Assembly: GCA_937876715.1 (NCBI GenBank)
Contig: CALEGA010000003.1
Span: 1-39,351, forward strand
Reading direction: 5' to 3'
Length of the DNA: 39,351 nucleotides
From: an uncultured Candidatus Saccharibacteria bacterium
Lineage (GTDB): Bacteria > Patescibacteriota > Saccharimonadia > Saccharimonadales > Saccharimonadaceae
This document shows, one piece after another, positions 5,910 to 31,467 of this stretch. The notes under the pieces were generated by a model. That model was not told where the DNA came from. It did no database searches and saw only the letters and a list, made by a program, of their open reading frames with translations. Position 1 is the stretch's first letter. Each line of letters starts with the position of its first letter. Made by a program: the position numbers and the translations under genes.

Positions 5910-9278
<3,369 letters not shown>

Positions 9279-9279
9279 T

Positions 9280-12200
9280 ATGGCTTGGGCAGATAATTAT
9301 ATTAGCGCCAGCGATTTCGACTCGATTCGCTTAAGCGTCGCCTCCGCCGCTGACATCCTGAACTGGAGCTACGGCGAAGTCACCAAACCAGAAACTATTA
9401 ACTACCGCACCCAAAAACCCGAACGCGACGGCTTGTTCTGCGAACGGATTTTCGGCCCGGTCAAAGACATCAACCCGCACGATGCCAAGCTCAAGGGCGT
9501 CCGCTCGCGCGAAGCTGCTGTCGATAAAGAAGGCAACCTCGTCACCAAGAGTATCACCCGCCGCGAACGTATGGGGCACATCACCCTCGCCGCGCCGGTT
9601 ACCCACATCTGGTTTATGCGCGGTACGCCGTCCGCTCTTTCGATTCTCCTTGACCTCACCGTCAAGAACATCGAAAAAGTAATTTACTTCGCCACTTACC
9701 TCGTCACTTCCGCGAAAGACGAAGAAATCGAAAAGGTCAAGGAAGACCTCGAAGCGCAAACTGAAGCCGCTCGTCAAGCTATCCAAGTCCGCTACGACAA
9801 AGAATCTAACGTTGACGGCGCCAACGTCAAGGCTCTCGCCGAAGCTCGCACCAAGGAGCTTGAAGAACTCGACGCCGACTACGTCAAACGCAAAACTTAT
9901 CTCGACAGCTTCCACAAAGGCGCCGTGATTAGTGAAGTTGACTATCGCAATCTTCCTGAAGAATACGAAGATTTGATTGAGGTCGGTATGGGCGCCACCG
10001 CCATCAAGAAGCTTCTCGACGAAATCGACCTCGACCTCCTCATCAACACCTTGAAAGAAGAGTCGGAAACCGCCAAGGGTCAAAAGGCAAAGAAAATCAC
10101 TAAGCGCCTCAAGATTCTCGAGGGTATGCAATCCGCCGGTATTAAGCCGAACGACCTCGTTCTCACGGTCATTCCGGTCATTCCTCCGGATCTCCGCCCG
10201 ATGATTTCTCTCCCAGGCGGTCGTTTCGCTACGTCCGACTTGAACGACCTCTACCGTCGCGTCATTAACCGTAACAACCGCTTGAAAAAGTTGCTCGACC
10301 TTAACGCGCCGGAAGTGATTTGCCGCAACGAAATGCGTATGCTCCAAGAAGCAGTTGACGCTCTCATCGACAACTCCGCCTCTCACGGCAACCGCACCGC
10401 CGCTACCCAAAACGGTCGTCGCAAGCTTAAATCCCTCTCTGACCTCCTCAAAGGTAAACAGGGTCGCTTCCGCCAGAACTTGCTCGGTAAGCGCGTTGAC
10501 TACTCCGGTCGTTCGGTTATCGTTGTCGGTCCGGAACTCAAGCTCAACGAATGCGGTCTCCCAAAGCAAATGGCGCTCGAGCTCTTTAAACCGTTCGTCA
10601 TCAGCTGGCTGATTGGTCACGAATACGCCGCCAACATCCGCGCCGCTTCTCGTATGATTGAAGCCGCCGACGCCGTGGTTTGGGATGCACTTGACGACGT
10701 CATTCAAGGTCGCTATGTCCTTCTTAACCGCGCTCCGTCTCTCCACCGTCTCTCTGTTCAGGCTTTCCAACCTAAGCTCATCGACGGTAAAGCTATCCAA
10801 CTCCACCCGCTCGTGGCTAGCGGTTTCAATGCCGACTACGATGGTGACCAAATGGCGGTTCACCTCCCACTTTCCGACGCCGCTCAGGCTGAGGCTCGCG
10901 AACTGATGTCCGCCACCAAGAACCTCTTGAAGCCCGCCGACGGCGCACCTGTGCTCGCGATTTATCAGGACGTTGTCCTTGGTATCTACTACCTCACTTA
11001 CAACAAGCCAGGTACCGACACCAACAAAGTCCACGCTTTCTCCAGCATCTACGAGGCAGAAATGGCTTATGACAAGGGTCTCATCGCTCTCCAAACGCCA
11101 ATCCGCGTCTTCGCTAAGAAAGAAATTCGCAATACCACCCTTGGTCGCGTTATCTTCAACGAAATCCTCCCCGAGGATTATCCGTTCGATAACTCCGTCC
11201 AAACTTCGAAGCAGCTCAAGAAAGTTATGGCAGACATCTTCGACGTCTATGGCCCAGAAATGACCGTCAAGACCGCCGACGCTGTCAAGAACCTCGCCTT
11301 TGAATACGAGACTATCGCCTCTGTTTCCACCGCGAAAGACGACTATCCGACTTATCCGGAAATCGCCGACTTCATCGCCGAGGGCGACGCCACCACTGCT
11401 CAGATTCAAGACCAGTTCAACCAAGGTCTCTTGACCGAAGAAGAACGCAAAAACCTCACGGTCAAAACTTGGCGCAACATCGACGATCGCATTTCGACCT
11501 TCCTTAAGGATAAACTTGCCGAACTCGACACCGACATCGCTGTTATGGTCAACTCCGGCGCTCGTGGTTCCGTCTCCAACATCAAGCTCGCTTCCGCGGA
11601 AATCGGCATTATGGTCGATATTAACAACAACGAAATCGAGCTCCCGGTCAAATCTTCCTATAAACAAGGTTTGAACACGCTGGAATCCTTCATCGCTACT
11701 CGTGGCGCCCGCCAAGGTCAGGTCTCTACGGCTCTCCGTACCGCCGACTCTGGTTACCTCACTCGCCGTCTCGTTGACGTCGCCCAAGACGTCTTCACGA
11801 CCGACGAAGAGGCTTACGACCCAGGCTTCGCCGTCTATAAGTACGAAACCGAAGAAACCGGCATCGACTTCCACGTCCGCATCGCTGGTCGCTACACCGC
11901 CGAAGCAATTCCAGGCTACCTCGAAGCCGACCAACTCATCACGCCTGAACTTGCCGCTCAACTCGAGGCTGACGACAAAATTGAGTCCGTCAAGATTCAA
12001 TCCGTCCTCACCACTACCGCAGTTAACGGCGTTCCGCGCAAGGCTTACGGCGTCGATATGTCCACTCGTGAACTCGTCGAAGCTAACCAACCAGTTGGCG
12101 TCATCGCTGCACAATCCCTCGGCGAGCCAGGTACGCAGCTTACGCTCGACACTAAGCACGGCTCCGGCGTCGCTGGTTCTGGTGCTATCGCCCGCGGTCT

Positions 12201-25805: not shown

Positions 25806-26258
25806 ATGGCTAAAGACACTAAAACTACCGTCAAGACCAAAAAAGGCGAAGTCAAGGAAACTAAAGACGCTAAGATCGTCTTGAACCTCTTACAACCTCG
25901 CGCCACCGAGAAAACTTACCTCGAACAAGCTAAGCGCACTTACGCCTTCTTCGTCACCGAAGAAACTTCCAAACAAGCTATCAAGGCTCGCGTGGAAAAA
26001 GATTACAATGTCAAAGTCACTGACGTTCGCGTTTTGACTCGTAAGGGTCATTCCTGCCGCTTCAGCCGTGGTAAGCACGCCTACCCAGGCACCGCTTTCC
26101 GCAAAGACCGCAAGCTCGCTTACGTCACGCTCGCCGAGGGGAATTCAATCAAAGTCTTCGAACAACCCGAAGAAAATAAAGCAACCGACGCAAAGGAAGC
26201 CAAAGCTACTAAGAAAGTCGCTAAAGCTGACAAGAATGCCGGTAAGGAGAATAAATAA
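25806..26258 (+). CDS. rplW: 50S ribosomal protein uL23 with N- and C-terminal Lys-rich extensions
   Basis: P..TEK, Y.F.V, SKQAIK..VE..YNVKV and KLAYVTL motifs; lies between rplD and rplB. Confidence 0.93.
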   Translation: MAKDTKTTVKTKKGEVKETKDAKIVLNLLQPRATEKTYLEQAKRTYAFFVTEETSKQAIKARVEKDYNVKVTDVRVLTRKGHSCRFSRGKHAYPGTAFRKDRKLAYVTLAEGNSIKVFEQPEENKATDAKEAKATKKVAKADKNAGKENK

Positions 26259-27800: not shown

Positions 27801-28426
27801 TGGGACAAAAAGTTAATCCTATTTCCTATCGTCTCCAAGTCAGCAAAGATTGGTCGTCTAAATGGTACACCAAAAAGACCGACTTCAAAAACTGGCTGAT
27901 TGAAGACATTAAAATCCGCGAATACGTCGAGAACCGCTTTAACGCTCGCCCGACCATCGCGAAAGTCAACATCGAACGTTCTGCTAATCTCACCACTATC
28001 ACGATTCTCACCGCCAAAGCTGGCGCCGTCATCGGCAAGCAAGGCGCGGGCATCAACGAGATGAAAAAAGATCTCGAAAAAATGGTGGCTGGTCCGATTC
28101 GCATCAACGTCGAAGAAGTTAAAAAACCTGAACTCAACGCCAAGCTCGTCGCCGAGAACATCGGCTTCCAGCTCGGTAAGCGTATGAACTTCCGCCGCGC
28201 CGTCAAGATGGCTTGCCAATCTACGATGGCTGCTGGCGCACAAGGTGTCCGCATCGAGGTCTCCGGTCGCCTCAACAACGCCGAAATGTCTCGCCGCGAA
28301 AAGTTTATCGAAGGCTCCGTGCCTCTTCATACTCTCCGCGCCGACATCGACTTCCACTGCCACCACGCTCAGACCATCGCCGGTATCATTGGTGTTAAAG
28401 TTTGGATTTACAAAGGGGAGAAATAA
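27800..28426 (+). CDS. rpsC: 30S ribosomal protein uS3
   Basis: MGQKVNP, VIGKQG, SGRL, PLHTLRADID and GVKVWI motifs. Confidence 0.98.
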   Translation: MGQKVNPISYRLQVSKDWSSKWYTKKTDFKNWLIEDIKIREYVENRFNARPTIAKVNIERSANLTTITILTAKAGAVIGKQGAGINEMKKDLEKMVAGPIRINVEEVKKPELNAKLVAENIGFQLGKRMNFRRAVKMACQSTMAAGAQGVRIEVSGRLNNAEMSRREKFIEGSVPLHTLRADIDFHCHHAQTIAGIIGVKVWIYKGEK

Positions 28427-28428
28427 CT

Positions 28429-28848
28429 ATGGCACTTTTACTTCCTAAGAAAACCGCTCACCGCAAGGTGCGCAAGGGCAAAAACGAAGGCATCGCCACT
28501 CGCTGCAATACTGTTGCGTTCGGCGACTACGGTCTGATGGCTCTCCAAAACGAGCGCGTCACTTCCCGCCAAATCGAAGCTGCCCGTCAAGCCATCACCC
28601 GCTACATTAAGCGCGGTGGTAAAATCTGGATTCGCATTTTCCCGCACACTCCGGTCACCAAAAAACCGCTCGATGTCAAAATGGGTAGCGGTAAAGGTGA
28701 ACCACAATATTTCGTGGCTAAGGTAAAAGCCGGTACCGTTATGTTCGAAATCGCTGACGTTACCGAAGCCGAGGCTAAGGAAGCCCTCCGCCTCGCTGGT
28801 CACAAATTACCGGTTCGTACAAAAATTATTAAGAAAGAGGAGTTCTAA
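28429..28848 (+). CDS. rplP: 50S ribosomal protein uL16
   Basis: [24 protein letters not shown] and HKLP motifs; GGGGAG SD before ATG 28429. Confidence 0.98.
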
Positions 28849-28850
28849 TT

Positions 28851-29174
28851 ATGGCACACACATTAATCGGGCTCGTTTCCTCCGATAAACGTGACAAGAC
28901 CATTACCGTCTCCATCGAAAATCGCGAAACCCACCCGCTCTACCGCAAGCAGTACACGAAAACTCGTAAATATACTGCTCACGACGAAAAGAATGAGGCT
29001 CACGTCGGCGACAAGGTCGAAATCGCCGCTTGCCGTCCACTCAGCAAAACCAAATCTTTCAAACTCGTGAAAGTCTTGGAACGCTCTCACGGCTCCGTCG
29101 AGCTTAAAGAAGACGTCACCGACGTTCTCGGCGAAAACAAACCTGAGACCGAAGCTGACGAAGGAGAGAAATAA
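28851..29174 (+). CDS. rpsQ: 30S ribosomal protein uS17
   Basis: G.VSSDK.DKTI, HPLY.K, AHDE and RPLSKTK motifs; acidic C-terminal tail. Confidence 0.97.
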
Positions 29175-29542
29175 TGATTCAACAAGAAACAAGATTAAAG
29201 GTTGCCGACAACAGTGGCGCCAAGGAACTCGGAGTCATCCGCGTTCTCGGCGGCACCCGTGCTCGCTACGCTCGTGTTGGTGACATCGTGACCTGCTCGG
29301 TCAAAGATGCCTCCCCAACCGGCGCCGTCAAGAAAAAAGCCGTCGTCCGTGCCGTTATCGTCCGCACTCGTCAACAAATTCGCCGTCCCGATGGCTCCAC
29401 CATCCGCTTCGATGACAACGCCGCCGTGCTTGTCAACGACGACAAGACCCCTCGCGGTACCCGCGTATTCGGACCCGTTCCTCGCGAGCTTCGCGACCTC
29501 GGCTTCAGCAAAATCATCAGCTTAGCACCGGAGGTACTCTAA
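29174..29542 (+). CDS. rplN: 50S ribosomal protein uL14
   Basis: [17 protein letters not shown] and [10 protein letters not shown] motifs. Confidence 0.99.
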
Positions 29543-29543
29543 T

Positions 29544-30128
29544 ATGGCTACTAAGAAAACAGATGCAAAATACATCCCACGCTTAAAAGAGCTTTACAAC
29601 TCCGAAGCTAAGAACTTGCAAAAAGAATTAAACCTTAAAAACATCAACGAGCTCCCGCAACTCGAAAAAGTTGTCGTCTCCGCTGGCGTCGGCAAAAAAC
29701 GTGAAGACAAGCGCTTCACCGAAACCGTCGTTCTCACCCTCGAGAAAATTACCGGTCAGGCTCCGACCTCCCGCCTTGCTAAGAAGTCCATCGCGACTTT
29801 CAAAATCCGCAAAGGTATGGGCGCTCCTGTCGGCTACCTCGTCACTTTGAGAAACGACAAGATGTACGAATTTGTTGACCGCCTTATCAACGTCGCGCTC
29901 CCACACGTCCGCGACTTCCACGGCGTCCCGACCACTTCGTTCGACAAGCAAGGGAACTACTCCCTCGGTCTCCGCGAGCAAACTGTCTTCCCAGAAATCA
30001 CTTTCGAAGACTCCGCTGTGCTCCACGGTCTCGAGATCACCTTTATTATTAAAAATGGCTCCAAGGAAGGAAGCAAAAAGTTGTTAGAAATGTTTGGTAT
30101 GCCGTTTGAGAGAAAGGAGAACAACTAA
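29544..30128 (+). CDS. rplE: 50S ribosomal protein uL5
   Basis: [25 protein letters not shown] and FD..GNYSLG motifs. Confidence 0.98.
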
Positions 30129-30397
30129 TGGCTAAGAAATCCGCCGTTCTCCGCGATCAAAAACGCGCCGAAATGTACAAAAAATATAAAGCAAAGCACG
30201 ACGAGCTCAAAGCCGCTGGCGACCTCGAAGGTCTCCAAAAGCTCCCTCGCAACGCTTCGGTCACGCGTCTCAAAAACCGTGATATGCTCGACGGTCGTCC
30301 TCGTGGCTATATGCGCCGCTTCGGTATGAGCCGTATTACCTTCCGTGAAAAAGCCTCCAAGGGTGAAATCCCTGGTGTAACTAAGAGTAGCTGGTAG
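30128..30397 (+). CDS. rpsN: 30S ribosomal protein uS14, 89-aa zinc-free form
   Basis: [31 protein letters not shown] and PGVTKSSW motifs; no Cys. Confidence 0.97.
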
Positions 30398-30414
30398 GAG
30401 AAAGGAGAAGAAAT

Positions 30415-30816
30415 ATGTCTATTCAATCAACTGACCAAATCGCTGACCTCTTAACGAGAATCCGCAACAGCTTGATGGTAGGGAAAAACGAAATCTATCT
30501 CCCGACCAGTAAGCTCAAAGTCGCCGTCGTTGACGCTTTGAAAAAAGCTGGCTACCTCGCCGACTACGAACTGATTGACCACGCGCCTCGCGCCGTCCTC
30601 CACATCACCATCGCGGAGAGCGGTAAAGTCGCCACCATCCACGAAATCGAAAAGGTTTCTAAGCCAGGTCGCCGTGTTTACGTCGCCGCTGACGAAATCC
30701 CGAAGATTAAGTCTGGTCGCGGCCTCGTCCTCGTCTCCACCTCTAAAGGTATTATGACCGGTCGCGAAGCCGCTAAAAACCGCCTCGGTGGGGAACTCCT
30801 CGTCAAAGTTTGGTAA
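30415..30816 (+). CDS. rpsH: 30S ribosomal protein uS8
   Basis: D.IADLLTRIRN, SKPGRRVY, STSKG and GGEL motifs. Confidence 0.98.
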   Translation: MSIQSTDQIADLLTRIRNSLMVGKNEIYLPTSKLKVAVVDALKKAGYLADYELIDHAPRAVLHITIAESGKVATIHEIEKVSKPGRRVYVAADEIPKIKSGRGLVLVSTSKGIMTGREAAKNRLGGELLVKVW

Positions 30817-30901: not shown

Positions 30902-30963
30902 ACAGGCAGAGTTTGGCTAGCGGCATCGCCGTAAATACAGAGTCAAACTGGAAGGGGATTAAA

Positions 30964-31467
30964 ATGGGTAAATTACTGAACGACCTCCGCGAATACCACG
31001 CTATGCACCGTCAAGCTTCCGCCGATTGGTACGCCTACAAGGGGATCATCCTGAGCGACCCGCGCTTCGCAAGTCGCGAGGACATTCTCCGGGCGCGCGA
31101 TATGGTGGACAATTTCGAGGCGGGCTCCTACTTCGGAGAAATCGAAGATCTGACCTGCAAGGGTCGCAGTCTCATCATTCTCATCGGCGCCCTCATCGCT
31201 GTCCTGCCCGTCATTCTGGTCGGGCACTGGCTCGCCGGTCTTCTCGGTCTCGCGGACTTCTCCGCCGCCTATGCCGGAGTCCTCGGCGGCACGCTTCTCA
31301 TTCTCGGCAGCGCCTGGGCAATCGCCTACAATCATTTTATGAACGTCATTGCCAAGCTGACGATGAAACACCGCGTCAAGAAACTTCAAGCCTGGATCGA
31401 CAAAGCCGGCCGCGAGGCCATCCTCGACAACTACCAAGAAGAGTTCCTTGAACTCACCACCGACTAA
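30964..31467 (+). CDS. Hypothetical membrane protein (2 TM helices)
   Basis: Two hydrophobic segments; AAGGGG SD before ATG 30964; own promoter and terminator. Confidence 0.8.
   Translation: MGKLLNDLREYHAMHRQASADWYAYKGIILSDPRFASREDILRARDMVDNFEAGSYFGEIEDLTCKGRSLIILIGALIAVLPVILVGHWLAGLLGLADFSAAYAGVLGGTLLILGSAWAIAYNHFMNVIAKLTMKHRVKKLQAWIDKAGREAILDNYQEEFLELTTD

Follow-up and report, generated by a model that had tools for sequence, protein, structure and literature searches.

Probable heritable loss of the large-subunit ribosomal proteins uL24 and uL29 in a host-associated clade of Candidatus Nanosyncoccus (Saccharibacteria)

Loss of the large-subunit ribosomal proteins uL24 (gene rplX) and uL29 (gene rpmC) has been described in bacteria with small genomes. 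In the available parts of their article, Nikolaeva, Gelfand and Garushyants (Mol Biol Evol 2021; PMC7782861) place both proteins in a 'frequently lost' set for genomes < 1 Mb, report a correlation between uL24 loss and bL9 loss, describe the lost proteins as lying at the surface with few contacts, cite Shoji 2011 for the viability of Escherichia coli knockouts of both uL24 and uL29, and name uL3 as co-initiator of large-subunit assembly alongside uL24. For the Candidate Phyla Radiation (CPR), the available sections of Tsurumaki et al. (RNA 2022; PMC9297842) describe lineage-specific loss of uL29, with some Peregrinibacteria named, the absence of uL30 in the CPR-type reduced ribosome, Saccharibacteria without bL9 and bL32, and shortened ribosomal proteins with simplified ribosome surfaces. 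A preprint by Galperin et al. (2021; 10.1101/2021.01.31.429008) lists, in the part available, rpmC as the sole missing ribosomal gene in Candidatus (Ca.) Uzinura and Ca. Walczuchella, and L29 and L30 as both missing in Ca. Fokinia (837 kb). Here we analysed a stretch of 39,351 nucleotides (nt) from an uncultured Saccharibacterium (assembly GCA_937876715.1, contig CALEGA010000003.1, positions 1 to 39,351 of the forward strand; hereafter the window), in which rplX and rpmC are both missing from the ribosomal protein operon.

The initial annotation of this DNA had taken the missing genes as its best candidate for an undescribed system. That claim was not upheld, as uL24 and uL29 loss is frequent in tiny genomes (PMC7782861) and uL29 loss occurs in some CPR bacteria (PMC9297842), according to the same available sections. 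A literature search, in which supplementary per-genome tables were not covered, did not turn up any earlier description of Saccharibacteria or Nanosyncoccus that lack uL24 or uL29. Neither protein is mentioned in PMC12641178, and the available portion of PMC13707452 mentions uL24 only as a marker, in its rp16 list of 16 'universal' ribosomal phylogenomic markers.

The operon stretch in the window runs uL3, uL4, uL23, uL2, uS19, uL22, uS3, uL16, uS17, uL14, uL5, uS14, uS8; uL2, uS19 and uL22 were identified by position and homology. The genes and junctions at the two empty slots are the following.

28429..28848, plus strand: rplP (uL16), 139 amino acids (aa); Pfam PF00252, E 2.1e-50
28849..28850, plus strand: uL16-uS17 junction of 2 nt, the slot of rpmC (uL29); judged from the sequence and the gaps across the genus
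28851..29174, plus strand: rpsQ (uS17), 107 aa; Pfam PF00366, E 3.7e-28
29174..29542, plus strand: rplN (uL14), 122 aa; Pfam PF00238, E 1.4e-54
29543..29543, plus strand: uL14-uL5 junction of 1 nt, the slot of rplX (uL24); judged from the sequence, the gaps across the genus and 10 colinear uL24-less loci
29544..30128, plus strand: rplE (uL5), 194 aa; Pfam PF00281 and PF00673 (both domains)

The assignments of uL16, uS17, uL14 and uL5 were all well over the curated Pfam cut-offs, and the ATG start of rplP agreed with that of relatives. The uL16-uS17 border reads TAA (28846-28848), tt, and ATG from 28851, and the uL14-uL5 border reads TAA (29540-29542), t, and ATG from 29544. Gaps of only 2 nt and 1 nt therefore leave no space for a remnant of rpmC or rplX. 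No remnant or pseudogene, frameshifted or shortened, was present in the slots of the window or of any clade locus, all with gaps of 1-2 nt. The coordinates, the gene order and the lack of a remnant in either gap, all given in the initial annotation, agree with these borders and with the neighbours confirmed by Pfam.

Neither gene was found elsewhere in the genome that contains the window (G000; other G and L numbers denote genomes and loci of relatives), an assembly of 683 kb in 77 contigs that is 88.5% complete. Searches of this genome with Pfam PF00831 (L29) and NCBIfam TIGR01079 (rplX) gave 0 matches at E <= 10; both models were positive in 14 of 14 control genomes. When uL24 and uL29 of G022, a member of the same genus that has both, were used as tblastn queries, nothing better than E 0.5 was obtained. 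Profiles were also built from the genus itself, A1 from 18 uL24 proteins and A2 from 10 uL29 proteins, and at E <= 10 these had 0 matches in all 8 double-loss genomes (G000, G080, G008 and G117-G121). As controls, G022 was positive for uL24 and uL29 (1e-41 and 6e-30) and G066 for uL24 only (5e-37). The public models likewise had no uL24 or uL29 match in G008, which is 97% complete. One alternative is that rplX and rpmC persist elsewhere, having been relocated, left in unassembled parts or diverged too far to be recognised. The incompleteness of the window's genome would allow for this, as would the interruption of the operon after uS8 throughout this clade, which shows that rearrangement does happen. 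However, a moved copy would need to escape all 8 independent assemblies, including that of G008, and profiles made from the nearest relatives matched nothing in any of the 8, against control matches at 1e-30 to 1e-41. We consider persistence elsewhere very improbable. The search of the closest relatives with hidden Markov models (HMMs) that had been proposed alongside the initial annotation, and its check for relocation, both gave the same answer: neither the window's genome nor any of 7 close relatives yielded uL24 or uL29, whereas the controls were positive, and no intact homologue was recovered by public HMMs, tblastn or genus profiles.

The junctions themselves were compared with those of independent assemblies. 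Ten other distinct uL24-less loci were colinear with the window from uS17 to uS14, at 82-89% DNA identity over 1550 nt, and these alignments contained 8-32 gap columns and no insert of ~230 nt between uL14 and uL5. Identities in this range indicate separate species that were separately assembled. The uL16-uS17 gap was also 2 nt in 6 of these loci, that is, in all whose locus includes uL16. Contigs or Logan unitigs of four public runs were compared over 28000-30400, with bridging judged by a 31-letter rule. Run X6 contained a single 2227-nt contig over 28183-30400 that included both junctions, with 32 differences and 0 gaps. In runs X1-X3, unitigs ended near both junctions and did not bridge them under the 31-letter rule; in X1, the loose end at 29548 resembles the start of the uL24 gene of a co-occurring relative. 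The graph breaks near 29519-29545 in 3 of the 4 runs could be taken as a sign of an assembly or binning artefact at both junctions, and they fall where co-occurring uL24-bearing relatives diverge. An artefact is nevertheless hardly conceivable given that separate assemblies of 10 further distinct loci, at 82-89% identity, have the same junctions, that the X6 contig crosses 28183-30400 ungapped, and that frames, stops and starts are intact on both sides of each junction. With the window, 11 distinct species-level loci have the uL14-uL5 junction, which together with the X6 contig answers the concern about misassembly.

We surveyed both slots across the genus. In the first sample, uL14 was located in 81 of 101 genomes, the surrounding DNA was retrieved and both gaps were measured; the second sample consisted of 80 loci from public species-representative genomes, found with the uL5 of the window and measured alike. 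In the first survey uL24 was absent from 3 of 80 assessable loci and uL29 from 67 of 77, and in the second survey the corresponding numbers were 10 of 79 and 48 of 72. After removal of 17 sets of identical rows, the pooled counts were as follows.

uL24: present in 128, absent from 11, of 139 distinct genus rows assessed
uL29: present in 27, absent from 103, of 130 distinct genus rows assessed

Where kept, the uL24 gene in the uL14-uL5 slot encodes 74-128 aa and the uL29 gene in the uL16-uS17 slot 59-88 aa. The human oral relative Ca. Nanosyncoccus nanoralicus has uL29 and a short uL24 of 75 aa. A short uL24 open reading frame (ORF) at L165 was considered as a decaying gene and rejected, the gene being intact at 75 aa. 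Of 16 genomes from sister families in the order, 14 have a uL29 over the Pfam cut-off and 15 a uL24 at E <= 5e-24. The uL24 non-matches in G005, G013, G018, G019 and G024 were left uncounted because uL14 was also missing from these genomes, their operon being unassembled. Genome sizes were ~0.6-0.9 Mb in the clade of the window and 0.5-1.2 Mb among relatives. The nearest named relatives (L093, L094, L097-L101 and L103) are metagenome-assembled genomes from intestinal samples of sheep, roe deer and goat and from two co-assemblies. uL24 is gone from at least 11 species-level genomes, the window's included, and neither gene was found elsewhere in 8 of these.

Trees were built from seven concatenated proteins of the same operon and rooted with ten genomes of other families. 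The genus was monophyletic with a long stem in both the 91-row and the 151-row tree. In the 151-row tree, uL29-bearing lineages branch first, a derived clade of 105 rows is without uL29 wherever assessable, and additional uL29 losses lie within a basal clade; in the 91-row tree, uL29-bearing rows are nested and not basal. The parsimony minimum for uL29 was 5 state changes on both trees. uL29 was lost several times, at deeper nodes than uL24. All 11 uL24-less rows fell inside one 14-row clade (support 98/95 in a careful 23-row tree), the base of which is an unresolved five-lineage fork where G066 with L105, and L135, retain a uL24 of 76-77 aa. Monophyly of the uL24-less rows was not rejected by the approximately unbiased test on the 23-row tree (p 0.317). 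uL24 loss occurred once, or a few times at most, later than uL29 loss. These results bear out two separate deletions, as the initial annotation had it, the loss of uL29 being deeper and repeated and that of uL24 later and in one small clade.

In sister families, uL24 is 105-118 aa long and ends in a conserved module of ~30 residues. Throughout the genus, uL24 stops after ~72 conserved residues and is followed by nothing or by a Lys/Ala-rich tail (for example at L014, 5611-5838, and at 127 other loci), and scores against the rplX model were 44-58 bits in the genus and 84-115 bits in sister families. The genus-wide loss of the module and the lower scores indicate that uL24 was reduced before the whole gene was lost. 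The C-terminal ~30 residues were lost on the stem of the genus, and the entire gene was then removed in one clade. Variable-length tails rich in Lys, Ala and Glu were observed at the C-termini of many ribosomal proteins of the genus (uL23, uL22, uS17, uL24), and the last codons of those tails (…KGEK, …KENK) also serve as Shine-Dalgarno site for the gene that follows.

Every cistron border in the operon has the form GGAG(G), 5-6 nt, TAA, 0-2 nt, ATGGC, in which the GGAG(G) is Shine-Dalgarno-like and lies within the last codons of the preceding gene. In genomes that retain uL24 and uL29, this motif flanks both genes on both sides. The deletions look clean because all borders carry the same coupling motif. 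A deletion from border to border would excise exactly one gene and keep the translational coupling of the next, and the clean junctions may have arisen either from microhomology or from selection for intact coupling.

We also looked for factors that act at the exit site. Of 31 genomes, 30 have trigger factor (tig), the window's own included (contig C8), and the protein retains the GFRxGxxP motif, here GFRKGKAP, which we take to have the role usually assigned to this signature. The signal recognition particle (SRP) was not found: an ffh model detected no SRP54-type GTPase in 20 of 21 relatives; a search for SRP54-type GTPases that would catch both Ffh and FtsY returned only P-loop noise at E <= 10 in 5 of 5 genomes; Pfam SRP54 was not found in 120 of 121 Patescibacteria genomes sampled, and the single match was marginal; none of 5 genomes searched yielded an SRP RNA; and neither DTAGR nor TKxDG occurs in a six-frame translation of the window's genome. 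For Parcubacteria, a 2015 article had already described a lack of SRP, in the part available (PMC4508563). The bL9 model (TIGR00158) was over cut-off in 0 of 5 genomes (G000, G080, G022, G066 and G027); as a control, it was positive in 10 of 14 genomes, all bacteria. These data fit an exit site that had lost a major ligand, SRP, long before uL29 and uL24 were lost. The absence of SRP and bL9 is phylum- or order-wide and is therefore insufficient alone to explain losses at the level of a genus. Constraint on uL29 would probably have been low already, given that one of its ligands, SRP, is lacking in almost every Patescibacterium sampled, and bL9, whose loss accompanies uL24 loss in other reduced genomes, may be gone here too. 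Mapping the loss together with ffh, ftsY and tig had been suggested at the outset; the loss could be placed on the tree and tig is kept, but the absence of SRP turned out not to be specific to the lineage.

The initial annotation had further proposed a rebuilt exit site, and two features of the window are relevant to such remodelling.

25806..26258, plus strand: rplW (uL23), 150 aa, with an extended N-terminus and a Lys-rich C-terminal tail; Pfam PF00276 over residues 28-116
20085..23182, plus strand: 23S ribosomal RNA (rRNA), complete, 3098 nt; Rfam RF02541, 2496 bits

In the uL23 of the window, the conserved PRATEK motif is preceded by an N-terminal extension of 30 residues. We compared uL23 with that of 50 relatives, with values taken by hand for G065 (motif ARATEK) and G048 (alternative start). 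The number of residues before PRATEK was 4 in all 9 uL29-bearing genomes examined; among 41 uL29-less genomes it was at least 10 in 27 and below 10 in 14. The longest extension, 30 residues, was found in the window and G080, both without uL24 and uL29. One basal clade contains both states: 21-24 residues in G065 and G062, which lack uL29, and 4 in G003, which has it. The AlphaFold2 model of the extension, made with a 27-row alignment, is a beta-hairpin of low confidence (predicted local distance difference test, pLDDT, 56-67).

Domain I of the 23S rRNA is intact in the window, including the stretch aligned to E. coli nt 300-345. The stretch aligned to nt ~300-345, which we take to be the uL24 binding region, is conserved in the window and in G080. 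Alignment of domain I from the window, G080, G066, G059, G022, G027 and E. coli contained no indel specific to the loss clade, and none common to the window and G080 yet absent from G066 and G022. Within the genus the 23S comparison was limited to domain I because the 23S of relatives is mostly cut at contig ends. Over the full length against E. coli, the window misses only 10 nt (~2206-2215) that G027, which bears uL24 and uL29, keeps; the other differences from G027 are G027-specific inserts. Compensation by rRNA was therefore rejected, as no 23S change follows the losses. Separately, an insert of ~150-190 nt in domain I (E. coli ~271-292; window ~20355-20540) was common to all Saccharimonadales compared (G027, G022, G066, G080 and the window), and the 23S of the window and G022 was 80% identical in domain I and 95% identical in the last 900 nt.

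Compensated remodelling would mean that new structure fills the vacated surface, chiefly the N-terminal extension of uL23, with a non-homologous protein or altered rRNA as further candidates. uL23 neighbours uL29, and the pattern of short extensions in every uL29-bearing genome examined and of longer ones in most uL29-less genomes points in this direction, as do the maximum in the double-loss window and G080 and the contrast between G065 or G062 and G003. However, 14 of the 41 uL29-less genomes (for example G079, G046, G106 and G088) do without an extension, so it is not required, and just 2-3 phylogenetically independent contrasts lie behind the association. The modelled beta-hairpin is also unlike uL29, which we take to be a two-helix protein, and neither the domain I alignment nor the full-length 23S comparison provided a change to match. 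The association over 2-3 independent pairs is suggestive of a uL23 extension that may stand in for uL29. We regard a rebuilt exit site as unlikely: trigger factor is kept, the absence of SRP is not lineage-specific, the losses are not followed by any 23S change and the uL23 extension is the sole candidate.

The remaining features of the operon stretch lie at its downstream end.

30415..30816, plus strand: rpsH (uS8), final ribosomal gene of the operon stretch; Pfam PF00410
31528..33045, minus strand: gene for a PEGA-domain protein of 505 aa, convergent, closing the operon stretch; Pfam PF08308

The operon is interrupted after uS8 (30816), where uL6 is not next; tblastn placed uL6 and uL18, at 5e-99 and 2e-46, on another contig of this genome, C74 (region 13668-14532). 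On C74 they sit downstream of ORFs that resemble bL31 and LuxS by eye. The break is common to the whole clade, G066 and G046 included, and the uS8-uL6 adjacency is kept in G022. Homologues of the PEGA gene were at the same place in 12 distinct loci of relatives, and in the window a 184-aa ORF (30913-31467) without a Pfam family lies between uS8 and the PEGA gene. Upstream, the 5S rRNA is at 23289-23397, with a SpoU methylase gene before the 23S and a glutathione peroxidase gene after the 5S (19318-24357); the 16S is not adjacent to the 23S, and the uS10 gene is not in front of uL3. A 1285-aa minus-strand frame (9331-13188) nearly mirrors a 1283-aa plus-strand ORF (9256-13107) and is probably a shadow frame caused by codon bias.

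Taken together, these data make it highly probable that two non-essential large-subunit proteins have been genuinely and heritably lost in a host-associated clade of Ca. Nanosyncoccus. The loss is a character of the clade and not a quirk of a single assembly, and it represents a new lineage for documented reductive ribosome evolution, with intermediate states well sampled. That both genes are truly missing, neither relocated nor lost to an assembly artefact, is borne out by the profile searches, the 11 loci and the X6 contig. Ribosomes of the clade would assemble and work without uL24 and uL29, as suggested by the viable E. coli knockouts and by the role of uL3 as co-initiator, and uL23 would remain the docking site for trigger factor.

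Several points weigh against this reading. Closed genomes are lacking for the double-loss clade (77 contigs and 88.5% completeness for the window's genome, 8 contigs and 92% for G080, 10 contigs and 97% for G008), and far-diverged proteins of 60-75 aa could evade even genus-specific profiles. The losses are documented here at the level of genes. The trees rest on 7 proteins from this operon; the number of uL29 losses is uncertain because the two trees place the uL29-bearing lineages differently, and uL24 loss takes 2 changes on the large tree, so that one event is allowed and not demonstrated. We infer both the microhomology mechanism and the link of uL24 and uL29 loss to the absence of SRP and bL9. 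An E. coli mutant without L24 is temperature-sensitive, an odd fit with life in a warm gut, and the 2011 deletion strains of Shoji et al. reportedly have growth defects.

A bolder view, which we hold to be doubtful, is that this clade may have a tunnel exit more reduced than any other known from bacteria that are not endosymbionts, with no uL24, uL29, SRP, FtsY or 4.5S RNA and with bL9 not found; an extended uL23 would then be the sole protein platform for trigger factor, 50S initiation would proceed without uL24, and the uL23 extension, perhaps with the Lys-rich tails, would be compensatory. If so, the genus would preserve each step (full set, uL29-less, truncated uL24, no uL24) for the study of the exit site and of assembly initiation. 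The graded natural series that the genus offers could help to show what either protein does for the assembly of the 50S subunit, for the docking of trigger factor and for membrane targeting independent of SRP. There is also a practical consequence. The NCBIfam and Pfam models of uL24 feed estimates of genome completeness, and because uL24 is truly absent in this clade, and uL29 in most of the genus, such genomes will be rated as less complete than they really are.

With Ca. Nanosyncoccus, an episymbiotic CPR lineage joins the insect and protist endosymbionts for which loss of uL24 has been documented. The losses here resemble those of tiny genomes (PMC7782861, as far as the available text goes) in that the same two proteins are involved, the genome is < 1 Mb and bL9 was not found here either; they differ in genome size (~0.6-0.9 Mb here), in the retention of trigger factor and in belonging to a Saccharibacterial lineage. 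The CPR losses (PMC9297842) likewise include uL29 among lineage-specific cases, and bL9, missing in Saccharibacteria, was not found here; however, in the available text uL29 loss is not named for Saccharibacteria, and the main text does not contain the name 'uL24' at all. The rpmC-only losses listed by Galperin et al. parallel the loss of uL29 alone in most Nanosyncoccus, but those bacteria are intracellular symbionts of eukaryotes, and the available part of the preprint describes no uL24 loss in Patescibacteria. Finally, the E. coli rplX and rpmC deletions, as cited in the available part of PMC7782861, likewise show a bacterial ribosome that assembles and functions without either protein. Those are single laboratory deletions, whereas the clade described here has a natural double loss that has been kept through a radiation of species.

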